Part shown: piece after piece, positions 25,783-40,811 of the stretch | Layout of the letters: each line of letters begins with the position of its first letter | Numbering within the stretch: position 1 is the first letter of the stretch | Source of the DNA: an uncultured Acidobacteriota bacterium | GTDB lineage: Bacteria; Acidobacteriota; Thermoanaerobaculia; UBA5066 | Direction of reading: 5' to 3' | Length of the DNA: 64,000 nucleotides | Assembly (NCBI GenBank): GCA_963779415.1 | Contig: CAVZYA010000001.1 | Coordinates: forward strand, 1,664,001 to 1,728,000 | The notes under the pieces: generated by a model | The model's input: the letters and a program-made list of their open reading frames with translations, nothing else | Database searches by the model: none | What the model was told of the DNA's origin: nothing | Translations under genes and position numbers: made by a program

Positions 25783-26783
25783 TCAGATTCCGTCCGGGAG
25801 ACCCGCACGGGGGTCGCCATCGTAGAGATGGGAGAACGTCTCGGCCGCGGCGCGCCCGTCGGCCGTCTGCCGCCTCGGAAGAACGACGTGGACCCGATAG
25901 TAGTGGTCGCCCGGAGCGGACGCTCGCGGATTCGAGATGCCGTACCCCTTGAGTCGAAAACGCTGGCCGCTCGCCGTGCCGGGGGGGATCTTCGCGCGGA
26001 CGGGACCGCGGATCGTCGGGACCTCGATCTCCGCGCCGAGATACGCTTCGGAAACCGTGACCGGGACGTCCGCGTTGATGTCGTCCCCCTCGCGGCCGAA
26101 GTAGGGGTGCGGCTCGACGGTGAGGGAGAGGTAGAGATCGCCCTCCTCCGTCCGCCCCTTGCCCGGGAGACGGATCTTCGAGCCCGTCGCGACGCCCGGC
26201 GGGACCCGCACGGTCACCTTCTCGTTCTCGACGAGGCTGCGCGAGCCTCGGCAGGCGGGGCAGACGCCGCCCCCCGCGCGGCCGGTTCCGTTGCAGCGGC
26301 GGCACCGGCGCGAGAGCCGGGCCCGAGAACGTCACGGTCCCCCCGAGGACCGCGTCGCGAAAAGGGATGGTCAGTTCCGCCGCCGCGTCCTCGTCCTCTT
26401 CCTCGGCTCCGAAGGGGATTCCGCCGAAACCCCGGCCCCTCACCCGAACGGGAAAAGAGCTCCGAAAAGAGGTCGCCGTAGTCCCCCTGCCAGTGGAATG
26501 CCCCTCCGGCCCCCGGGGCGCCGCGGAACGGCCCGCCCGCGCCGGGCGGTGGCCCCGCCGGAGGAACGGTGCCCGTCTCGCCCGTCCGGTCGAAATGCTC
26601 GCGCCGCTTCGGATCCTTGAGAACTTCGTATGCGGCCGCGATCTCCTGGAACTTGCGCTGCGCGGAGGCGTCTCCGGGGTTCACGTCGGGGTGGTGCTTC
26701 CGGGCGAGCCTGCGGTAGGCCTTCTTGATCTCCGCGTCGGTGGCGCGGCGATTCACTCCGAGTACTTCGTACGGGCTTTTCAT
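25783..26783 (-). CDS. dnaJ: DnaJ/CbpA-like co-chaperone (frameshifted)
   Basis: J-domain YEVLGV...HHPDVNPG; CRRCNGTG and CPACRGS; C-terminal VPTIRG...IPPGT. Confidence 0.8.
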
Positions 26784-26891
26784 GAAGAAGATCGCGCCCA
26801 AAGCGCGGCGTCGGACCTAAGATTAGACCGTGGCCGCACGCAGGGCCAGACCGCCTTTCGAAAATCGACCCGGACGGCGGTGGGAGCGTTC

Positions 26892-28189
26892 GTGAGCATC
26901 GCGCATCATCGCGACATCCTTTCGATGGTTCTCGCCGGAGGGATGGGCGAGCGCCTCTTCCCTCTCACGCGCGACCGCGCCAAGCCGGCGGTGCCGTTCG
27001 GGGGCCGCTACCGGATCATCGATTTCGTCCTCAACAACCTCGTCAACTCGGGCCTCAGGAAGATCAAGGTTCTGACGCAGTTCAAGTCGAACTCGCTCAT
27101 CGAGCACATCATCCGGACCTGGCGCCTGACCTTCGACATCGGCGAGTTCGTCGACCCGGTTCCCGCGCAGATGCGGCGCGGACCGCACTGGTTCCGCGGC
27201 ACGGCGGACGCCGTCTACCAGAACCTGAACCTGATCTTCGACGAGGAGCCGCGGCACGTCTGCATCTTCGGCGGCGACCACATCTACACGATGGACGTCA
27301 ACCCGATGCTCCAGTTCCACCAGGAAGGGGGGCACGACCTGACGATCGCCGCCTTGCCGGTGCCGATCGCACGAGGCCTCACGCTTCGGGGTCCTCGAGG
27401 TCGACGCCTCGGGACGCGTCATCGGCTTCGAGGAGAAGCCGAAGGCGCCCCGCTCCCTTCCGTCGGCGCCGGGGCTCGCCCTCGCCTCGATGGGAAACTA
27501 CGTCTTCCGCGCGAATTTCCTGATCGACTCGCTCGAGCACGACGCGCTGCAGGACACCTCGCACGACTTCGGCAAGACGATCATCCCCGGGGCCCTTCGC
27601 GACGGCGCGCGGATCTTCGCCTACGACTATCTCGACGAACCGGGTGCCGGGCGAGGAGGATCTCGCCCCGTACTGGAGGGACGTCGGAACCGTCGACTCC
27701 TACTGGGACGCGTCGATGGACCTGATCTCCGTCACGCCGCCGCTCAGCCTCTACAACCCGAAGTGGCCGATCAAGAGCCATTCGCCCCAGCTCCCGCCCG
27801 CCAAGTTCGTCTTCGCCGACGCGGTCTCCCAGCGCATCGGCCTCGCGACCGACTCCATGGTCGCGTCGGGCTGCATCATCTCGGGCGGGACGATTCACCG
27901 GTCGATCCTCTTCCCCCGCGTCCGCGTGAATTCCTTCTCGCACATCGAGGAATGCGTCCTCATGGACGGCGTCGAGGTGGGGCGCTACGCGCGCCTCCGC
28001 CGGGTCATCGCCGACAAGGGCGTCAAGATCCCGGCCCGGGTCGAGATCGGATTCGACGAAGAGGAGGACCGTCGCCGGTTCCACGTCTCCGACGGGGGCG
28101 TCGTGGTCCTGCCGAAAGGGAGCGAAATCGTCGACTCCGGCGGCCCAGGTCGCGATTTCGGGTTGATTCGCCCCTCCGGCTCCAAATAA
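26892..28189 (+). CDS. glgC: Glucose-1-phosphate adenylyltransferase (frameshifted)
   Basis: [61 protein letters not shown]. Confidence 0.9.
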
Positions 28190-28224: not shown

Positions 28225-28683
28225 ATGGACGAGATAGATCGTCAGATCCTCGATCTCCTTCAGCGCGACGGGAAGATTTCGCAGGCCCGGATCGCGGAAG
28301 CCGTCGGCCTGACGACGCCGTCCGTCAATGAGCGGATCAAGAAGCTCGAGACCCGAGGCTTCATCCGACGCTTCACGGCCCTGCTCGATCCGCGCCTTCT
28401 CGGAATGCCCCTCGTCGCCTACGTGGACGTGGGTCTCGAGCATCCCCGTTTCGAGCGCCCGTTCCTCGAGGAGATTGAGACGCTTCTCGACGTCCAGGAG
28501 TGCTGTGCGATCTCCGGAGATTTCGGCTACCGGCTCAAGGTACGCGCCCGCGACGTGGACCACCTCGAGCGGATTCTCCGCGAGAGGATCCAGACGCTCC
28601 GGGGCGTCGTCCGGACTCGCGTCGAGCTCTCCCTCTCGGTGAAGAAGGACTCGACGCTCCTTCCGGTCACGGAAGGGGCCTGA
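28225..28683 (+). CDS. Lrp/AsnC family transcriptional regulator
   Basis: MDEIDRQILDLLQRDG...AVGLTTPSVNERIKKLE; RAM domain. Confidence 0.92.
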   Translation: MDEIDRQILDLLQRDGKISQARIAEAVGLTTPSVNERIKKLETRGFIRRFTALLDPRLLGMPLVAYVDVGLEHPRFERPFLEEIETLLDVQECCAISGDFGYRLKVRARDVDHLERILRERIQTLRGVVRTRVELSLSVKKDSTLLPVTEGA

Positions 28684-28831
28684 CGCCCCAAGGTGCTGCC
28701 TCCGGGCGTCATTTCGTCAGCGACCGACCCCCAAATGGGATGAGCGACCGACCGGCTGATCGGTCAATGACATGTCTCAACTCTCTCAAAAAAAAAGGGT
28801 TGAAGACGCCGGGCCCGGTGGACAAAACCGA

Positions 28832-28846
28832 AGGCACCCGGTTTGC
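28832..28846 (+). promoter_or_regulatory. sigma54 (-24/-12) promoter
   Basis: AGGCAC-CCGGT-TTGC versus consensus TGGCAC-N5-TTGC; upstream A-tract (28788-28796) and repeated AGCGACCGACC. Confidence 0.6.
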
Positions 28847-28857
28847 GTAAAAGAGAG

Positions 28858-29090
28858 CAGGAGATCGAAACGACATCAGGGAAACCGAAATGCACGAGAT
28901 CTTCAATTCCCGCCCCAGCACCCGCTGGCTCTTCAGCCTTCGGGCCCACCTCCACCATCCTTCCTGATCCTATTCCGCACATCTGACATCCCGCCGCCGC
29001 AACCCCCGCCCGATCCGAAAGATCGGGTGGGGCCCGCCGCATTCGGAGAGCCGAAGTCCCCCGCACCGCACGCTGAATCGGGACGCCGTC
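28858..29090 (+). ncRNA. Candidate sigma54-dependent sRNA or micropeptide transcript (25-aa sORF 28890-28967)
   Basis: Follows the sigma54 motif; 12-bp hairpin at 29004-29032; no long plus-strand gene before the convergent OMP gene. Confidence 0.35.
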
Positions 29091-29091
29091 T

Positions 29092-29674
29092 CTAGAACCG
29101 GTACCCGAAGCCGCCCGTCAGGAAGAAAAACTTGTGGTCGAGTCTGTGTCTTCGGCACGTCGTACGAAGCCTCGACCCGGAAATCGAAGCGCGGAGTGAT
29201 CCGGAATACCGCCTGAGTCCCGACGCACCACCCGAAGACGGTCTGCGCCGGGTCGGCGGCCACCTGATCGGTTCCGGGCGCCTTGGGGGAGACGTCGAAG
29301 ACGCCGAGCCCGGCGAGGAGCCCCGCTTCCCACCACGGCTCCCGATAGCGGTAGGTGACGATGACGAGGCCGGAGTTCACCTGGATGTCCGGGGCGCCCG
29401 GCGCGCCCCCCGGAAGCGTGACGAACTGCCCTCGCGCCTGCAGGAGGACGTCGTTGCGCGCGCCGTAGGTCTCGAGTGAGGCTTCGAAGAAGACGTAGCC
29501 TCCGAAGTGACTGAAGCTGTTGTCGGTGACGTTCGCTCCCACGTCGGCGATGGCGCCGCCACCTCCGCCCGCCGCAAACGTCTGCGCGGCGGCGGGCGCG
29601 GCCGCGGAGAGGAAAAGCGCGAAGGCGACCACGCAGAGGCGGCGGAGAGCAGCAGAGCGTTTTGGGCGGCTCAT
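29092..29674 (-). CDS. Small outer-membrane beta-barrel protein (C-terminal frameshift)
   Basis: Signal peptide ending PAAA-Q; alternating strands; corrected C-terminus DHKFFFLTGGFGYRF* (beta-signal). Confidence 0.75.
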
Positions 29675-29744
29675 CTTCCGTTCAGCATAGGCGCCGGGAA
29701 TCCGGAGCGTCAATACCGCCACGAACGGGAACGCCTCGACTAGA

Positions 29745-30511
29745 ATGCCCCGACGTGACGTTTCTGGACGCCCTGTCTTCCCCCCGGGTCCCCACGCCCG
29801 CCGTCATCATTCGCTCTCTTCCTCTCGCCTGATCGCCCCCTCGCGCTGCGCCGGCTGTGGCGGGCCTCGGCGCGAAGCCGGCGGCGGCGGGTTCTGTCCC
29901 TCCTGCTGGAAAGGCCTTCCCCGCTTCGAGACCGGTTCGACCTGTCCCCGATGCGCGATCCCGACGGGCGGCACGCTTTGTCGGGGGTGTGCCGCCTCGG
30001 AGCCGCCCGTCGAACGGGCCGTGGCTTTCGGCCCGTATGAGGGGGGCTTGAAACGGCTCGTCCACGCGGTGAAGTTCCAGGGCTACGACATCGCCGCGGC
30101 GCCCGCCGGCGCCCTTCTTGCGGACGCCGTGCGGGGCGAGGGGATCGACGCTCCCGACGCCGTCGTGGCCGTCCCTTCGACGCGCCGCCGAAACCGGGAG
30201 CGAGGCTACGACCCCGGAGCCCTCCTCGCCGAGGAGCTTGGCCGGCGCCTTTCCATTCGCCTCATCCCCGCGCTTGCACGCGTGAGAGAGACCCCACCCC
30301 AGTCCGCGCTGGGAGCTTCCGAGCGGCGCTCCAACGTCGCCGGCGCCTTCCGGGGCCGCCCGATTGCCGCCGGCCGGTCGCTTCTTCTCGTCGACGACGT
30401 GATGACGACGGGAGCGACGGCCTTCGCGGCCGCCGGGGCGCTCCGGGACGCCGGCGCGAGACGCGTCGACCTCGCCATCCTCGCGCGGACTCCGGAGCCG
30501 GAGATGCATGA
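29745..30511 (+). CDS. comF: ComF family phosphoribosyltransferase-like protein
   Basis: Zn ribbon CAGC/CPSC/CPRC/CRGC, RERGYD, LLVDDVMTTGAT; true stop obscured by a probable frameshift. Confidence 0.8.
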
Positions 30512-31423
30512 GCCTTTTCGACCGACTCGTCGTCGCCTCGATCCCCTTCATCCCGCGCGGCGTCGTCCACCGGGTGGCGCGCCGATACGTCGCGGGGGAG
30601 ACGCTGGAGGACGCGATCGCCACCGCGCGGTCGCTCGCCGCCGAGGGGGCGATGGCGACCCTCGACGTCCTGGGCGAGAGCGTGACGCGCCCCGAGCAGA
30701 CCGAGGCCGCGCGAGACGAGTACCTCCGGGTGCTCGACGCCATCGCCGCGAGCGGCCTTCCGGCGAACACGTCGGTCAAGCCGACGGCGGTGGGGCTCAG
30801 CGATCGACCCCGATCTCGGCGCGCCGCAATCTCGCGGCGATCTGCCGGAAGGCGGCCGGCCACGGCATCTTCGTCCGCCTCGACATGGAGGACACCCCCT
30901 ACACGGAAAAGACGATCCGCCTCGCGCTCGACCTGAAAGCGGAGTTCGGAAACGTCGGGACGGTTCTGCAGGCATACCTCCGCCGAAGCCTCTCCGATCT
31001 CGACCGGCTCGGTCGAGGCGCAGATGAACGTCCGGATCTGCAAGGGGATCTACAACGAGAAGCGGGAACTGGCCTACAAGGGCCACGACGTCGTCGTCCG
31101 GAACTTCGCCGCGATGGTGGAGAAGCACCTCGGCTCCGGCGGCTACGCGGCCATCGCGACCCACGACGAGGCATGCGTCCAGAGCGGCGCTCGCGACGAT
31201 CGACCGGCTGAAGCTCCCGGGGAACGCCTACGAGTTCCAGATGCTCCTCGGAGTCGATCCGCTCCTCCGGCGCGTCCTGATCGCCTCGGGGCACCGGCTT
31301 CGCGTCTACGTCCCCTTCGGGCGCGACTGGTACGCGTACTCCACGCGAAGGCTGAAGGAGAACCCGTCGATCGCCCGCCACATCGTGAACGCCATGCTCG
31401 GGATGGGGCCTTCCGGAAGCTGA
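30508..31423 (+). CDS. putB: Monofunctional proline dehydrogenase (frameshifted)
   Basis: RRYVAGETLEDA, LDVLGE, RLDMED, VLQAYLRRS, RICKGIY, IATHD, QMLLGV, YVPFGRDWYAYSTRRLKENP. Confidence 0.85.
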
Positions 31424-33450: not shown

Positions 33451-33502
33451 AAACAGTGGTTTAGATCACTCCGAACAATCGAACGAATGGCACCCTGATT
33501 GC
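33451..33502 (+). promoter_or_regulatory. sigma54 promoter (TGGCAC-CCTGA-TTGC, 33488-33502) with upstream IHF-like site (33451-33463)
   Basis: Exact -24/-12 consensus; AAACAGtggtTTA is one mismatch from WATCARnnnnTTR. Confidence 0.75.
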
Positions 33503-33518
33503 GTGTCCAAACAACAGG

Positions 33519-36272
33519 GTGCCATCTCCCCTCAGAAGATTCGACCGACTCCTGACCGGGTTCCTCGCTCTGATCTTCGTCGCGAGCGTGGTGCCGCTGG
33601 CCTTCGTCGTCTCGCGGAAGATCGCGCTTGCGGGCCGCGCAGACGTCCTGGTTCAGAGGGAAGCTGAAGGTCTCCGGGTCCTGAAAGTCGGCCGCAGTGC
33701 CGAGCCTTCCGGGCTGAAGGCCGGGGACCTCGTCCTTCTCGTCGACGGCGCCGATGCCGCGGCAGCCGGAGATCCGTCGTCGTGGCTCGCCCGGGGCCCG
33801 GCGGACGTCTCGATCCTCCGCAGCGGAGAGGTCCGGACGCTGCGAACGCGGCCCGTCCCTTCGCCGTGGGACATCCGGTACTTCTTCCTCTTCGCGACGG
33901 CGGTGGCGTTTCTCGTCACCGGAGCGACGGCCCTCGCGACGGCCTCGCGGTCTCCGCAGGCCGGGGCTTCACGGCTCTACGCCCTGTTCGCCTTGACGGT
34001 CGCGCTCGTCTTCGGCCTCACTCCGCTCGCGCCGATCGATCTCCTCTTCCGCGTCTCCGTTCTTCTCGAGGACGCCTCGCGCGCTCTCTTCCCCGCGCTG
34101 CTTCTCCTCCTCGTCCTGAGCTTCCCGCGCCCGACCCCCCGGGCCCTCCGCTTCGCCCCGTTCCTGCCCGCCGCCCTGCTCCTCGCGGCAACCGCCGCGA
34201 TCTACTCCGGCGCCGCCTTCGCGGGCGATCCCGTGCACGCCGTGGAGACTCTCGACCGGCTCCAGACGATCTGGATCGCCGCCGCCGTCGGCCTCTCGCT
34301 CCTCCGGCTCGAACGGCTCTGGCGCCGGCCCGGGGATCTCCTCGCCGAGAAACAGGCCCGCTACCTCCTGCTCGGCACCGGAATCGGCCTGGCGCCGGTC
34401 GTCGTTCTGAACCTCCTCCCGGGGCTCCTCGGGATCTCGATACCGATCCTTTCCTCCCTTTCGATCCTGCCGCTGGCGCTCGTTCCCTTCGCGTTCCTCG
34501 CGGCCCTCACGAATTTCCGTCTGTGGGATGCGGAGGTGCTGGGGAGGGAAACTGCCGCCCTCGTCGGCGCGGGTCTCGCCGGCGCGGCACTCTTCGCCGG
34601 GACGCAGATTCTCCTTTCGAACCCCGTCGTCCCCCTTCTCCCGTATGCGAGAGGAACCCTGCAGGCTGCGGCCGGCCTCGTCATCGCCCTCAGCTTCGTG
34701 CCGGTGCGGCGGGGGCTCTCGGCCGCGTTCTCCCGAATCCAGTACGGCGAGAACTGGAGCGCCCGTGAGGAGCTTCTCGCCCTCGTCCGCGAGCTCGCCG
34801 CGCCGCGGGCGGCCGGAGAGATCGAGCAGCTGCTGGTCACCCGCGCCGCCCGGGCCCTTTCGATCGGTCCGGCGGCTCTTCTTCCCGTCACCCGGGAGGG
34901 TCGGCTTCCGGCCGGAGCCGTGGACGGCGGGGAGGATCTGCACCTCGAGGAGCTTCCGGAGGAGGCCGCGCGCCACACGGTGCGCCTCTCGAGAAGCCGT
35001 CTCGACGAGAGCCAATCCGGGACGATCGAACGGCTTCGGGCCGCCGGCTTTCGGACCCTCGTACCGCTCGCCGCATCCGGGAAGCTCCTCGCCTTCTTCG
35101 CCCTCGGCGATCGGCTCGGCCGCGTGCCGCCTTCCCACGAGGACCTCGAGCTTCTGGAGACCGTTCTCGCCGCCGCGGCACTCGCCCTCGACCACGCGCG
35201 GCTCTACGAAGAGGTGAGGGCGCAGGCCGAGAGCTACCGGACGCTCAAGGAGTTCCACGAGGATGTCGTCGCCGGATCGGCGGCGGCGATCGTCGTGACG
35301 GACGAGGCGGGCCGTGTGGCATCGGTGAACCCCGCCTTTTCTCTCCTCGCGGCGCGCTCCGCCGCGGAGCTGATCGGCCGAATGGAGACGGAGGTCCTCC
35401 CGCCGGCGCTCCTCTCCAAGGAGTCGCCCCGGCGGCTGGAGGCGGACCTCGGCGGCGGCCCGCGCGTCCTCGACGCGGCCGTGTCGCGCTTCCCCGGGGC
35501 TCCGGCCGGGGCACGCGCTCGCGTCTTCGTCCTTCACGACGCCACGGAGACTGCCCGGCTGGAGCAGGCCCTCGCCGAGCGCGAGCGGATGGCCGCCCTC
35601 GGCTCGCTCTCCGCCGGCGTCGCTCACGAAGTCAATACGCCCCTGACGGGGGTGACCGGCTTCGCCCGCGTCCTCCTCGACGAGACGCCCGCCGACGATC
35701 CGCGCCGCCCGCTTCTCGAGAAGATCGAGCGGCAGGCCTTCCGCGCCTCGCGGCTCGTCGGAAGCCTCCTCGACCTGGCGCGCGGCCGTCCGCGCGAGCG
35801 CGTCGCCATCGATCCCCGGAACCTCGCGCGGGAGGCCGCCCGGGTCTTCGAGGAGGAGGTCGGGACGCACGGCGTGTCGCTGACCCTCTCGCTTCCCGCC
35901 GAGGCGCCTCCCGTCCTCGGGCACGACGACGCCCTTCTGCAGGTTCTCGTCAATCTCCTCAAGAACGCCGCCGAGGCCGCGCGCTCCGTCCGGGAGCGCG
36001 AGGTCCCGGGCGGGCCCGCCGTCCGGCTCGCGCTCGACGCCGAGGAGCGGTTCGTCCGGTTCGTCGTGGAGGACAACGGCCCGGGCCTCCCGGCCTCCGG
36101 AGCCGATCGCCTCTTCGATCCGTTCTTCTCGACGAAGACCGCCGAGGGGGGAACCGGGCTGGGGCTGACGATCGCGCGGGATATCATCCGGGCGCACGGC
36201 GGGTCTCTCGACGTCGCGCCGCGCCCCGAAGGCGGCGCCTGCTTTACGGTCCTCCTGCCGCGCGGCTCCTGA
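33519..36272 (+). CDS. Multi-TM sensor histidine kinase (PDZ-like, GAF, PAS, HisKA, HATPase)
   Basis: SGLKAGDLVLLVDG; AGVAHEVNTPL; QVLVNLLKNA; DNGPG; FDPFFSTK; GTGLGL. Confidence 0.92.
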   Translation: MPSPLRRFDRLLTGFLALIFVASVVPLAFVVSRKIALAGRADVLVQREAEGLRVLKVGRSAEPSGLKAGDLVLLVDGADAAAAGDPSSWLARGPADVSILRSGEVRTLRTRPVPSPWDIRYFFLFATAVAFLVTGATALATASRSPQAGASRLYALFALTVALVFGLTPLAPIDLLFRVSVLLEDASRALFPALLLLLVLSFPRPTPRALRFAPFLPAALLLAATAAIYSGAAFAGDPVHAVETLDRLQTIWIAAAVGLSLLRLERLWRRPGDLLAEKQARYLLLGTGIGLAPVVVLNLLPGLLGISIPILSSLSILPLALVPFAFLAALTNFRLWDAEVLGRETAALVGAGLAGAALFAGTQILLSNPVVPLLPYARGTLQAAAGLVIALSFVPVRRGLSAAFSRIQYGENWSAREELLALVRELAAPRAAGEIEQLLVTRAARALSIGPAALLPVTREGRLPAGAVDGGEDLHLEELPEEAARHTVRLSRSRLDESQSGTIERLRAAGFRTLVPLAASGKLLAFFALGDRLGRVPPSHEDLELLETVLAAAALALDHARLYEEVRAQAESYRTLKEFHEDVVAGSAAAIVVTDEAGRVASVNPAFSLLAARSAAELIGRMETEVLPPALLSKESPRRLEADLGGGPRVLDAAVSRFPGAPAGARARVFVLHDATETARLEQALAERERMAALGSLSAGVAHEVNTPLTGVTGFARVLLDETPADDPRRPLLEKIERQAFRASRLVGSLLDLARGRPRERVAIDPRNLAREAARVFEEEVGTHGVSLTLSLPAEAPPVLGHDDALLQVLVNLLKNAAEAARSVREREVPGGPAVRLALDAEERFVRFVVEDNGPGLPASGADRLFDPFFSTKTAEGGTGLGLTIARDIIRAHGGSLDVAPRPEGGACFTVLLPRGS

Positions 36273-36276
36273 AGTC

Positions 36277-37665
36277 ATGACGATCCTCATCCTCGACGAC
36301 GAGCCCGTCATCCGGGACGTGCTCCGGACGATCCTCGGAAAGGCCGGCTTCGGCGCGGTCGAGGCCGGGACCGCGTCCGAGGCCCTCGAGCTTCTCGCGA
36401 GCGAGCCCGTCGACCTCCTGCTCCTCGACCTGATGCTCCCGGACCGCCCCGGGCTCGAGGTCCTCACCGAAGTCCGCGCCCGCTGGCCGGAGCTTCCCGT
36501 CGTCGTCATCACGGCGTACTCGTCCGTCGAGAGCGCCATCGCAGCGATGCGTCAGGGGGCGTACCACTACCTCCCGAAGCCTTTCCGGAACGACGAGATC
36601 GTGCACGTCGTCCGGCAGGCCCTCGAGAAGCGGCGTCTCGTCGCCGAGAACCGCGAGCTGAAGTCCCGTCTCGACGGAGCGCGCGGCGGCCTCGGCGAGA
36701 TCGTCGGGCGCGGGCCGTCCATGGAAAAGGTCTTCGACACGATCCGGCAGGCCGCCAACGCGAGATCGACGATCCTCGTCGTCGGCGAGAGCGGCACCGG
36801 AAAGGAGCTCGTGGCTCGGGCGCTCCACCGTCTCTCGCCGCGGGCCACCGGCCCCTTCGTGACGGTGAACTCGGGCTCGCTGCCGCCCGACCTTCTCGAG
36901 TCGAACCTCTTCGGCCACGTCCGCGGTGCCTTCACGGGCGCCGTCGCGGACAAGAGGGGCCTCTTCAAGGTCGCCGACGGAGGGACGATCTTCTTCGACG
37001 AGATCGGGACGATCCCGCTCGAGACGCAGTCGAAGCTGCTGCGCGTCCTCCAGGAGCGGGAATTCCTCCCCGTGGGGGCCGTGGAGCCGATCCGCTCGGA
37101 CGTCCGCGTCGTCGCCGCGACGAACGCCGACCTCACCCGCTTCGTCGCCGAGGGGCGCTTCCGCGAGGATCTCTACTACCGGCTCTGCGTCATCACGATC
37201 CACCTCCCGCCGCTCCGCGAACGGAAGGAAGACATCCCGCTTCTCGTCGAAGCCCTCGCGGCGCGGGCCGCTGCCGAGAACGGGCGCGCCGTGCCGCCCG
37301 TCACCGCGGCCGCGATGAAGGCTCTCCTCGACTACGACTGGCCGGGAAACGTCCGCGAGCTGGAGAACGTCCTCGAGCGCGCTCTCGTCCTCGGGCCCGG
37401 CATCATCGGCGCGGAGGAGCTGCCGGACGCCGTCCGCCGCGCCGTGCCGCGCCCGGCCGCAATCCCGTCCGACGGGATCTCGTTCCAGGACGCCGTGGAC
37501 GCCTACCGGCGATCTCTTCTTTCGGCCGCGCTCCACCGCGCCGGCGGCGTCCAGAAGAAGGCGGCGGAGCTTTTGCGCCTGAAACCGACGACGCTGAACG
37601 AGATGCTCAAGCGCCAGGGCATGCTGTCGCGCGACCGCGACGACGGGGAGAAGCCCGCCCGCTGA
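36277..37665 (+). CDS. NtrC-family sigma54-dependent response regulator
   Basis: REC domain, GESGTGKE, GAFTGA, FFDEI, WPGNVRELEN, Fis-type HTH. Confidence 0.95.
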   Translation: MTILILDDEPVIRDVLRTILGKAGFGAVEAGTASEALELLASEPVDLLLLDLMLPDRPGLEVLTEVRARWPELPVVVITAYSSVESAIAAMRQGAYHYLPKPFRNDEIVHVVRQALEKRRLVAENRELKSRLDGARGGLGEIVGRGPSMEKVFDTIRQAANARSTILVVGESGTGKELVARALHRLSPRATGPFVTVNSGSLPPDLLESNLFGHVRGAFTGAVADKRGLFKVADGGTIFFDEIGTIPLETQSKLLRVLQEREFLPVGAVEPIRSDVRVVAATNADLTRFVAEGRFREDLYYRLCVITIHLPPLRERKEDIPLLVEALAARAAAENGRAVPPVTAAAMKALLDYDWPGNVRELENVLERALVLGPGIIGAEELPDAVRRAVPRPAAIPSDGISFQDAVDAYRRSLLSAALHRAGGVQKKAAELLRLKPTTLNEMLKRQGMLSRDRDDGEKPAR

Positions 37666-37671
37666 AGTCTC

Positions 37672-39333
37672 CTACCCTTCGCGGCGAAGGAGGACGAAAG
37701 TCCGATCGTCGGCGTAGGGGACGCCCCGCACGAACGCCGCGAGCGCCGCGAGGACGTCGACCTCGATCTCCCCGACGGCCTTTCCGCGCGAGTCCCGGAC
37801 GACCGAGAGCAGCCGGTCGATCCCGAATTCCTCGTCCTCGGGGTTCGACGCTTCCGTGATGCCGTCCGTGTAGAGGGCGATGAGGTCTCCGCGAGCGAGA
37901 GTCAAGTTGCCGGCGCCGTACGCCTTCCCCGGGAAGAGCCCGAGCGGAGGACCGTGCGCCTTCAGGAGCTCGTGCGTCCCGTCCGCGCGGACGAGGATGC
38001 CGGCGTTGTGCCCGGCGTTCGTCCAGACGATCCCGCCCGTGTTCGGCTCGTAGAGCGCCGTGATCATCGTGATGAACTTTTCCGGGCTCGTCTTCCGGAA
38101 GACGAGGTCGTTCAGCCGGGAGCAGAGCTTGTCGAGCGGAAGGTTCTCTCCGGCCCACGCCTGATAGGCCGCCTGCACCGTCGCGGCGAGGAGCGACGCC
38201 CCCATCCCCTTGCCGCAGACGTCCGCGACGACGACGTCGACACGACCGTCGGGGCGCTCGTAATAGTCGTAGTAGTCCCCCGAGACGCGGCGCGACGGCA
38301 CCGTCCGGCCGAGCATCGCGGTCCTCGGCAGCTCCAGATCGCGCTCCGGAAGGAGCCGGCGCTGGATCTCCCACGCGACCGACATCTCCCGCTCGAAGCG
38401 CTCCTTGGCGATGGCGCTCTCCCGCAGCCGAAGGTTCTGGATCTTCACGGCGGCCGTGTTCGCGAGGGACGTCAGGAGCCGCAGATCCTCCTCGGTGAAG
38501 CTCTTCCGGCCTAGCCGCACCTCGAGGTAGACGAGGCCGATGACCTGGTCGTCCACGAAGAGAGGCGCCGCCATGCACGACGTGACCCCCTGGATCCGGA
38601 TCGACTCGGCGGCCGCGAGCGGTCCGTCCGAGGCCGTGTCGATGACGAGAATGCCGTTCTTCCGTTCCACGACCGTCTGGACGAGGGTCTTCGAGAGGCG
38701 GATGTCGGCCGGGTCGACCCCTTCGGCGAACTTCACGAGCTCCGGCTTCAGCTCCCCCTTCTCGTCGGCGAGCATCAGGAGCCCGCGGTCCGGCTGGAGG
38801 TAGGTGAAGACCTTGTCGACGACGAGTTCGAGGAGCCGCGGCAGCGGGATGTCGGAGAGGAGTTCGACCGACACCTCGTTCAGGATCCGGAGGGAGGCGT
38901 TCAGCCTTGCCAGCTCCTCGGCGCCGAGACGACCGCCGCTCTCTTCGCGATGCGACCGGACGAGATCCCGCGACGACTGGAGGAAGGTCGTCCGCCGGAG
39001 GCTGTCGTCTTCCTTCGCGTCGATCACGACGCGCGTCGTCGACTCCTCGAGGATGTCGATGACGGTCTCGCCGAGCTGGATCCGGTCGCCCCCCCGGAGC
39101 GTGACCGGGTCGGAGATCCGGGTGCTGTTGACCATCGTCCCGTTCCGCGAGCCGAGATCGACGACGCGGATGAGCCCGCCGTTGGCCTGCTCGAGGCGCG
39201 CGTGGACGCGGGAGAGGGTCCGGTCGGAGAGCGGAATGTCATTCGTGGAGGAGCGGCCGAGCGTCATTGCCGGCCGTTCGAGGCGGAGTCGGCGCGGAGG
39301 CTCGCCGGGGACGCGGACGTTCAGGAGAAGCAC
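37672..39333 (-). CDS. FHA-GAF-PP2C (SpoIIE/RsbU-like) phosphatase
   Basis: LGRSS...SRVHA...DLGSRNGT (FHA); [26 protein letters not shown]. Confidence 0.9.
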
Positions 39334-39441
39334 GGCGGGGAGTCTAGCAAGGCACCGCCCGGAGGAGGGCCCGTCGAGCCGCGTGGTATCCTCTGCGGTT
39401 CCGCGACGGCTCACGAAAAGCGGCCGGTCGCCGAGGAAGCC

Positions 39442-39669
39442 ATGAAACCCAAGATCCATCCCGAGTACCACGAGGTCAACGTTCACTGCGCCTGCGGGAA
39501 CACCTGGAAAACCCACAGCACGAAGTCCGAGCTGCGCCTCGAGATCTGCTCCGAGTGCCACCCCTTCTTCACGGGGAAGGCGAAGCTCGTCGACACCGCG
39601 GGACGCGTGGAGCGCTTCCAGAAGCGCTACGCGAAGGCCACGAAGGCCGCGCCCCCGGCGTCCGCGTAA
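39442..39669 (+). CDS. rpmE: 50S ribosomal protein L31 (Zn-binding type)
   Basis: MKPKIHPEY...CACG...[11 protein letters not shown]...GRVERF. Confidence 0.97.
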
Positions 39670-39728
39670 AGGCCGAGCCGGGCCCCCTCCCGGCCGCGGG
39701 CCTCCCCGTCGCCCGCGCCCCCAAGACG

Positions 39729-40811
39729 ATGTTCGAGAAGCTCGCCGAGATCGAACGGAAGTACCTCGAGCTGAAGGCGCGCTCGGAATCTCCGGAGGTC
39801 GCCTCCGACCACGTCGAGTACGCCAGGGCCGTCCGGGCGATGAAGGAGATCGCACCGATCGTCGAGAAGGTGCGCGAGCGGCGCCGCCTCGAGACGGAGA
39901 TCGGCGGCGCGAAGGAGCTGCTCGACACCCTTCCCCCGGCCGATGAGCTGCGCCCCGTCGCCCAGCAGGAGTTCGACTCTCTTCGCGAGCGGCTGGCCGC
40001 CGCCGAAGAGGAGCTGAAGGTCCTGCTCCTTCCCAGGGACCCGAACGACTCACGGAACGTCGTCCTCGAGATCCGGGCGGGGACGGGAGGGGACGAGGCC
40101 GGGCTCTTCGCCGCCGAGCTCTTCCGGATGTACGTCCGCTACGCCGAGTCGCGCCGCTGGAAGGTGGAGGTCGTCGAGCGAAGCGACGCCGGGGGAGTCG
40201 GGGGCATCAAGGAGATCCAGGCGATCGTCGAGGGCGAAGGGGCCTTCTCGCGGCTGAAGTACGAGGGGGGAGTCCACCGTGTCCAGCGCGTTCCCGCCAC
40301 CGAGACGCAGGGGCGGATCCACACCTCCGCCGCCACCGTCGCGATCCTTCCGGAAGCGGAGGACGTCGACGTCACGCTGAACGACAAGGAGATCCGCGTC
40401 GATCTCTTCTGCGCCTCGGGCCCCGGCGGTCAGGGGGTCAACACGACCTACTCCGCCGTCCGGCTGACGCATCTGCCGACCGGGACGGTCGTCCAGTGCC
40501 AGGACGAGCGGTCGCAGATCAAGAACAAGGCCAAGGCGATGCGGGTCCTGAAATCGCGCCTCTACGAGGTCGAGCGGGAGCGGCGCGACGCCGCGTACGC
40601 CGCCGACCGGAAGAAGATGGTCGGGTCGGGAGACCGGTCGGAGAAGATCCGGACCTACAACTTCCCGCAGTCGCGCGTGACGGACCACCGGATCGGATTC
40701 ACGTCACACCGCCTCGCGGAGATCCTCGACGGCCGCCTCGACGAACTGATCGACCCGCTCGTGGCGTATTACCAGGCGGAAAAACTCAAAGCCGAACTGG
40801 CAAGGAGCTGA
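39729..40811 (+). CDS. prfA: Peptide chain release factor 1
   Basis: VQRVPATE (PxT), [17 protein letters not shown]. Confidence 0.97.

Follow-up and report, generated by a model that had tools for sequence, protein, structure and literature searches.

The window analysed here is a 64-kb stretch of DNA from an uncultured acidobacterium, the genome of which is referred to as G000. In this window, the stop codon of a gene for an AsnC/Lrp-type regulator (lrp) and the stop codon of a convergent gene for an outer-membrane beta-barrel protein (OMP) enclose a gap of 412 nucleotides (nt). Judged from comparison with related genomes, the gap holds a conserved, previously undescribed small RNA (sRNA) gene with a sigma-54 promoter. 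The family of uncultured Acidobacteriota that contains G000 is called the analysis family; f2 is its sister family, and f3 is a further family of the same order of Thermoanaerobaculia. The lrp gene is syntenic with the RNA in nearly all members of the analysis family.

A preliminary description of the window had proposed an unannotated sigma-54-dependent sRNA gene at this position, with no conventional gene downstream. The proposal is upheld by a conserved block that begins at the predicted transcription start (+1), by the covariation of two predicted hairpins, P2 and P3, and by the presence of one copy per genome. As was also described, the next gene is convergent; the listing of open reading frames (ORFs) and Pfam identify it as the OMP beta-barrel gene. 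Because it is convergent and no co-directional gene follows, the RNA is not a leader. Nor has a full gene been lost at the locus, since relatives show the same gene-free gap.

Promoter and extent of the RNA

The promoter consists of GGCAC (the -24 element) and TTGC (the -12 element) separated by five nucleotides. The base that precedes the GG in G000 is A and not the T of the canonical TGGCAC-N5-TTGC. Taken alone, the occurrence of such a pattern in one window is weak evidence, because GGCAY-N5-TTGC is found twice in the 64 kb against 0.37 expected and 7 of 100 shuffles reach two; the whole G000 genome has 36 matches. The promoter was already recognized in the preliminary description, with +1 near 28858, and both assignments agree with its conservation in relatives. 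The GG and TTGC, and with them the diagnostic GG/GC dinucleotides, are invariant in 19 of 19 aligned genomes, and each of the 51 family loci compared (L001-L051, a set that includes repeat fetches of the same genomes) has exactly one promoter match, always equally far from the RNA. The 11-nt spacer that follows TTGC varies, and invariance restarts with CAGGAGATCGAA exactly at the +1 predicted for sigma-54 (28858). An rpoN gene is present in the genome (PF04552, 218.7 bits, G000:C1:443751-444224). No overlapping sigma-70 promoter was found at the sRNA promoter.

The limits of the conserved block were delineated by searching 41 genomes, G000 counted, with a 1475-nt query. All seven other genomes of the genus match contiguously across the gap. 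Other genera give a separate match to query positions 600-813, which correspond to 28825-29038 of the window, and the same limits (gap positions 142-355) were obtained when the 412-nt gap was compared by BLAST with the loci that had been fetched. The conserved block thus defined begins some 7 nt ahead of the -24 element and stops just after a 12-bp hairpin. The block is 68-80% identical in several genera, and the flanking sequence is not conserved: in the 19-genome alignment the 140 nt upstream cannot be aligned beyond the closest relative. The predicted 5' end of the sRNA is set by the promoter spacing and the onset of the invariant block CAGGAGATCGAA, and the predicted 3' end by the terminal hairpin and a conserved CCCRCC tail. 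Of the transcript outlined in the preliminary description, the start near 28858 stands, and the length is revised from about 230 to about 185 nt on the basis of the conservation limits.

Structure, distribution and neighbourhood

The helices of the RNA were derived with RNAalifold and with a covariance model, R1, built on 19 sequences, and base pairs were counted on 39 model-aligned sequences. In this alignment, the fitting of which to R1 favours structure, 98.5% of the helix cells are paired compared to 31-53% in controls with slid partners. Eight pairs are changed on both sides, compared to 2.0 in shuffles, and none of 500 shuffles reaches eight. Covariation in relatives, a check suggested in the preliminary description, is found in both P2 and P3 (Table 1). 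The 5' domain is formed by helix P1, which encloses a variable inner hairpin, P1a. In five of eight folded representatives the AUG of a short ORF pairs within P1a with a conserved CAU; the other three have a different inner stem, and two of these come from genera that lack the AUG.

Hairpin P2 and the terminal hairpin P3 are separated by a G-poor tract that is presumably single-stranded. It contains CACCUCC and CCUUCC, both resembling anti-Shine-Dalgarno sequences, and the invariant CCGCCGCAA (28994-29002). The invariant CCGCCGCA and other C-rich columns also lie outside the helices, and even the most diverged copy retains CCCACCGCCGCA. P3 is followed by a conserved CCCGCC, and in several relatives T-rich runs come after the CCCRCC tail. 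The hairpin may also serve as a terminator for the convergent OMP gene.

The RNA is nearly universal in the analysis family. Model R1 detects exactly one full-length copy in 59 of the 62 other family genomes (E values of 1e-19 to 1e-52) and no paralogues. The remaining three genomes are special cases. A diverged copy in G011, which scores 39 bits with the filters off, has the promoter GGCAT-N5-TTGC and is located between glgC and the OMP gene, with lrp missing. In G075 the expected locus falls at a contig start, and in G044 it is probably off the contig, the activator-carrying contig appearing too short. The G011 copy (L145:6528-6735) has CAGCTGATCG in place of CAGGAGATCG; the loss of lrp at the locus is seen in this one genus. 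Elsewhere in the order, R1 matches none of seven f3 genomes and one of 81 f2 genomes, and the single f2 match (G087) is inside a coding region and spurious. An exact pattern composed of the promoter, the 5' block and CCGYCGC was also run against one genome per species of 185,579 species. It yielded 48 matches, 46 of which are homologous. All 46 are metagenome-assembled genomes, with no cultured strain among them. The majority carry the label Thermoanaerobaculia, Acidobacteriota or Holophagales; a single one, the G006 contig, goes under Acidithiobacillales. The other two, L082 and L109, do not align and are chance matches.

A related RNA is found in family f2. When the filters were switched off, three f2 loci adjacent to lrp came to light in which TGGCAC-N5-TTGC precedes a C-rich RNA of similar length; the terminal hairpin of this RNA is much like P3 and has an identical GCCCNCC tail. 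The f2 RNA is convergent with lrp and is therefore inverted relative to the analysis family. BLAST with one f2 RNA matches 43 of 101 f2 genomes in six genera, 38 of them at E < 1e-10; two large genera of f2 give no or marginal matches only. The arrangement of promoter, RNA and terminator is present in 28 of 30 fetched f2 loci, and the f2 counts include L123, from the unpublished genome G025 (1 of 28 sequences). RNAalifold missed a P2-like hairpin in the f2 alignment, in which such a hairpin is visible by eye. The f2 RNA is regarded as a probable distant homologue of the G000 RNA.

Table 1. Features of the sRNA locus, of the candidate regulatory genes and of the related f2 loci (window coordinates unless a locus is named)
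Feature	Position	Strand	Remarks
AsnC/Lrp-family regulator gene (lrp)	28225..28683	+	Upstream neighbour; Pfam HTH_AsnC-type 8.6e-18, AsnC_trans_reg 2.8e-15
Two upstream boxes, GCGTCATTTCGTC (28706-28718) and CCCCCAAATGGGATG (28728-28742)	28706..28742	.	Candidate activator sites, about -150 to -115
Imperfect palindrome GACCGACCGGCTGATCGGTC	28746..28765 (about -110 to -93)	.	Candidate enhancer site, lineage-specific; overlaps the direct repeat
Sigma-54 promoter, GGCAC (-24) N5 TTGC (-12)	28833..28846	+	GG and TTGC invariant in aligned relatives
Predicted sRNA	28858..29038	+	About 181 nt in G000 (about 181-190 nt overall); ends predicted; covariance model match 28855-29038, 181 bits
Helix P1, GGAGATC (28860-28866) with GATCTTC (28898-28904)	28860..28904	+	5' domain; encloses variable inner hairpin P1a
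25-codon ATG ORF MHEIFNSRPSTRWLFSLRAHLHHPS	28890..28967	+	Probably not a conserved protein gene
Hairpin P2 (CCCG..GGCT / AGCC..CGGG)	28921..28944	+	5 of 7 pairs with compensatory double changes
G-poor, C/U-rich tract	28945..29003	+	About 60 nt, presumably single-stranded; candidate seed; invariant columns
Terminal GC-rich 12-bp hairpin P3	29004..29032	+	Terminator-like; 100% paired; 3 of 9 pairs compensatory
Convergent OMP beta-barrel gene	29092..29674	-	Weak Pfam OMP_b-brl match; syntenic neighbour
Second sigma-54 promoter TGGCAC-N5-TTGC(G)	33488-33502	+	Directly upstream of the kinase-activator operon; kept in 5 of 5 relatives
Sensor kinase (33519-36272) and NtrC-type sigma-54 activator (36277-37665)	33488..37665 (operon unit)	+	Candidate cognate regulator
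f2 RNA loci	L058:1765-1975, L059:1648-1860, L115-L144

The OMP gene probably lies outside the RNA unit. Among 36 loci, 24 have as the nearest convergent frame found one that terminates with an aromatic ...F motif, at a distance of 3-132 nt from the RNA. In G000 the frame of this gene is broken near 29130-29150: the ORF for the N-terminal part, which includes the signal peptide and starts at 29674, continues into the sRNA region, and the canonical C-terminus ...FFFLTGGFGYRF (...GYRF, stop 29092-29094) is in a frame other than that of the N-terminal part. The frame is intact in G001, and the change in G000 is probably an assembly indel. Further split or fused genes are found at 25783-28189 and 29745-31211, namely a lone C-terminal piece of DnaJ, a glgC-like gene present as two overlapping ORFs, and ComF-like and proline-dehydrogenase domains within one ORF. 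Because several nearby genes are split or fused, the three-contig G000 assembly probably carries indel errors, and single-base details of G000, such as the length of an A9 tract upstream of the promoter, are therefore to be read cautiously.

A sigma-70-like promoter, TTGACG-18-TATGCT, is found at 29672-29713 (- strand) and ends 9 nt ahead of the OMP start codon. By eye, a TATCCT, TATTCT or TATGCT box is seen about 8-12 nt before the OMP ATG in many relatives (L003-L051). Because of the position of this box, the OMP mRNA looks leaderless, or nearly so. The OMP mRNA was considered as a target of the sRNA via its ribosome-binding site and set aside, since the gene appears leaderless. At the other end of the region, a gene for a large FHA-GAF-SpoIIE protein (PP2C phosphatase) at 37672-40053 (- strand) directly follows the activator gene on the opposite strand.

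Candidate regulation, proposed mechanism and alternatives

All of the smaller elements listed in the preliminary description, i.e., the direct repeat, the palindrome, the A-tract, the C-rich tract and both hairpins, are found on direct reading of the sequence, at the positions given there. Three of them, namely the direct repeat, the second hairpin and the A-tract, are not conserved in aligned relatives. The direct repeat AGCGACCGACC occupies 28719-28729 and 28743-28753. The palindrome has a perfect 20-bp counterpart in G001, the closest relative, and a partial one in G006, and is unrecognisable in other genera. The A9 tract (28788-28796) is flanked by TCAAC and GTTGA; as such it is not conserved in relatives, many of which, by eye, have A/T-rich sequence at about -55 to -80. 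Its proposed function as a site for integration host factor (IHF) is without support, as no match to the IHF consensus WATCARNNNNTTR with at most one mismatch occurs within the surrounding 3.4 kb. The second hairpin, TTCGG-AGAG-CCGAA, is located at 29042-29055. The direct repeat, the palindrome, the A9 tract and the second hairpin possibly reflect chance or are lineage-specific. The two upstream boxes have a wider distribution: among 29 upstream regions compared by eye, related boxes (GTGYC and an A/T-rich segment, then GTCYCC/GGAC and an A/T-rich segment) recur at the same place in several genera. Comparison of these upstream elements yielded no consensus. The first box, GCGTCATTTCGTC, may alternatively be the tail of the lrp terminator.

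The candidate cognate regulator is the sensor kinase and NtrC-type activator pair, which is itself preceded by a sigma-54 promoter; this suggests autoregulation or control by another activator. An ortholog of the activator is found 7.2-7.3 kb downstream of the RNA, on the same strand, in five of five relatives from three genera. It is 77-85% identical to the G000 protein, compared to 48% for the next best paralogue, and the relatives carry 21 to 29 or more activator paralogues. In f2, an ortholog of 60-61% identity lies about 7-8 kb from lrp in five of five genomes. The preliminary description had suggested that the RNA is possibly linked to the NtrC system or to Lrp. Conserved synteny is what speaks for the former link; the latter is positional, and one genus keeps the RNA without lrp.

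It is fairly probable that the region from 28858 to about 29038 (+ strand) encodes a regulatory, non-coding RNA some 185 nt in length, which sigma-54 polymerase transcribes and which acts through a C-rich seed. An NtrC-family enhancer-binding protein would bind the upstream elements at about -150 to -90 and open the sigma-54 promoter on receipt of a signal, the best candidate being the activator of the syntenic pair at 33.5-37.7 kb. The RNA would then fold into the 5' stem-loop P1/P1a, hairpin P2, the unpaired G-poor tract of about 60 nt and the terminal hairpin. The exposed CACCUCC, CCUUCC and CCGCCGCAA could pair with the G-rich ribosome-binding regions of target mRNAs, a plausible mode of action. 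Hfq, the gene for which is present in the G000 genome, would probably assist the pairing, and translation of the targets would be lowered.

Several observations weigh against this interpretation. P1 is paired in 99% of the cells and is sequence-invariant, and because it never varies it is not supported by covariation; its conservation may have another cause, or it adds no support. The full-length G000 RNA has only a small advantage in folding over shuffled sequences (z = -1.44). In G000, P3 lacks a following U-run, and a simple terminator scan did not call this hairpin. Transcription of the sRNA is a prediction from the DNA. No sequencing run contained at least half of the sampled words of the stretch; four libraries labelled as metatranscriptomes contained small shares, and two of these are probably DNA. 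From each of three libraries came a single contig of a relative, with a low depth of about 2-5, and from the fourth, X19, none. One of the contigs starts upstream of the promoter and two pass the terminal hairpin, so that their ends are unlike those predicted. Because they run past the promoter or the terminator, they may represent DNA or read-through. Complements of 12-13 nt to the invariant motif occur in the G000 genome at about the chance level. The activator assignment is weak, because the block from the activator to lrp is syntenic across the order, which makes synteny a weak argument for a functional link, and because no upstream motif is shared by the sRNA and kinase-operon promoters in six genomes, the best 12-mers (10-11 of 12 positions) being equal to those of shuffles. 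Finally, indels in the short ORF tend to keep its frame, most clearly in f2, which is unlike the expectation for a purely non-coding RNA.

Two complements to the invariant motif may be listed as leads, at the chance-level frequency just given. A perfect 12-nt complement is found at codons 4-7 of a purL-like gene outside the window (G000:C1, about 1304830-1304870, - strand), and another immediately downstream of the start of a putative exported protein (C1, near 842376).

The ORF raises the question of whether translation matters alongside or instead of base-pairing, as in a dual-function RNA or a translated ORF of 25-33 codons with a fast-evolving peptide. This is regarded as rather unlikely. 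The ORF was compared in 81 distinct family copies that have the promoter, 49 derived from genomes and 32 from metagenomes. Of 120 metagenome stretches 36 were used, and the 84 that lack the promoter were dropped as chance matches, those inspected reading like unrelated GC-rich coding sequence. An ATG ORF of 25-32 codons is present in 65 of the 81 copies (one broken copy reads to 53). In f2, an ORF of 28-33 codons is found in all 28 copies; it stops at a conserved TAGG in 26 and elsewhere in two, and its AUG is about 8 nt from the predicted +1. As the OMP neighbour looks leaderless, translation from short leaders may be common here. Within genera of f2, gap runs inside the ORF are 3, 6, 3, 3, 3, 3 and 1 nt long, compared with 13 of 15 outside it that are not multiples of three. 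Four lineages of the analysis family (g3, L239, L046/L089 and L013/L161) each have two indels that singly shift the frame and together amount to a multiple of three. Against this stand two other lineages the indels of which do not add up in this way, and the events are few and share ancestry, for which reason no P value is given. Furthermore, the 16 copies that lack any ATG keep the RNA, the AUG is explained by its pairing in P1a, and the same P2 nucleotides are read in three frames within genus g4. Since stop triplets are scarce in C-rich sequence, the other two frames in G000 likewise contain ORFs over most of the stretch (28843..28986 and 28772..29095). No constraint is apparent at the level of the peptide either. 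Codon position 3 is the least variable (0.100 vs 0.167 and 0.126 in one clade, 0.203 vs 0.239 and 0.264 in another), the synonymous share of single-base differences is 0.22 and 0.28 in the ORF frame compared to 0.25-0.41 in shifted frames, and f2 substitutions have no codon-position bias. The 25-residue ORF of the preliminary description thus exists where it was placed, a conserved micropeptide is unlikely, and the ORF is probably not a protein gene, although some lineages may translate it. In a variant of this reading, the ORF would be translated and be under selection for its frame and its end point but not for its amino acids. Ribosome passage through P2 and the anti-Shine-Dalgarno-like tract would then gate the activity of the RNA, a feature common to two divergent sigma-54-driven families next to lrp across the order; we consider this, too, to be unlikely.

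Two further explanations leave the short ORF aside. The RNA might sequester a protein in the manner of CrcZ or CsrB, its C-rich motifs titrating an RNA-binding protein instead of pairing with mRNAs. Similar motifs (CCACC, CCUCC, CCGCC) do recur along the long unpaired tract, and CrcZ is a sigma-54-dependent protein sponge. The motifs, however, do not recur at regular intervals within loops, each genome has a single copy without paralogues, and we know of no bacterial protein that binds such C-rich motifs, which makes sequestration improbable. Still more remote, to the point of being very improbable, is a cis element, either a processed 3' untranslated region of lrp or a shared bidirectional terminator or antisense unit for the OMP gene, the promoter match being incidental. 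The RNA always lies between two gene ends, with its GC hairpin 3-132 nt from the OMP stop at the 24 of 36 loci mentioned above, and the contigs from RNA libraries run through both ends, as such an element would have it. Yet the promoter is invariant and the conserved block begins at its +1, G011 keeps the RNA without lrp, the f2 RNA is inverted relative to lrp, and 185 nt that include invariant unpaired motifs would not be preserved for the sake of a terminator alone. A base-pairing sRNA under sigma-54 control is thus the explanation that is preferred here.

Relation to known small RNAs and significance

A cmscan of 28500-29300 against Rfam release 15, with E values up to 10, gave only three chance matches, to eukaryotic or archaeal families. 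As no Rfam model matches, the RNA is not a member of GlmY/GlmZ, Qrr, CrcZ, NrsZ, Pxr or 6S. No description was found in full-text literature searches on sigma-54- or RpoN-related small and non-coding RNAs of Acidobacteria and on small RNAs of Thermoanaerobaculia. The control of transcription resembles that of the known sigma-54-dependent sRNAs, and the RNA is a member of none of their families.

GlmZ activates glmS, and GlmY is a decoy for RapZ. GlmY/GlmZ of Enterobacteriaceae have a sigma-54 promoter, the response regulator GlrR with TGTCN10GACA sites, and IHF (PMC3045617). With this system the G000 RNA shares a stand-alone sRNA gene of similar size and a sigma-54 promoter; the upstream activator sites and the two-component activator have candidate counterparts in G000. 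It differs in that the G000 locus is without TGTCN10GACA, the IHF consensus or an overlapping sigma-70 promoter; moreover, the candidate activator gene is 7 kb away and the tract in the G000 RNA is C-rich. The Qrr sRNAs act by Hfq-dependent base-pairing through a conserved unpaired seed; they are about 100 nt long, multi-copy and adjacent to luxO. In Vibrio they are reported to depend on sigma-54 and the NtrC-type activator LuxO (PMC10162802). Unlike Qrr, the G000 RNA is about 185 nt long and single-copy, belongs to another phylum and has no Rfam match.

CrcZ and CrcY (under CbrB) and NrsZ (under NtrC) of Pseudomonas are also sigma-54-driven sRNAs under two-component control. CrcZ traps Hfq/Crc by A-rich motifs and NrsZ is processed into repeats, whereas the motifs of the G000 RNA are C-rich and neither family matches it in Rfam. 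SgrS/SgrT and RNAIII/hld are structured regulatory RNAs with a short ORF, the peptide of which is conserved and functional. The G000 RNA is similar in having a short ORF and differs in that the peptide is not conserved and a fifth of the copies have no ORF.

Very little is known about the regulatory RNAs of Acidobacteriota, since most lineages of the phylum, that of G000 among them, have not been cultured. With the RNA described here, the few known families of sigma-54-dependent sRNAs would gain another. Through the contradictory signals of its ORF, the RNA is also a test case for the evolution of short ORFs within sRNAs. With a defined promoter, RNA and candidate activator, the system can be tested in a heterologous host. 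An RNA that is single-copy and nearly universal in the family, has a sigma-54 promoter and is matched by a related form in f2 points to a core circuit for signal response, in which a sensor kinase would act on an NtrC-type activator, the activator on the sRNA, and the sRNA on the translation of target mRNAs.

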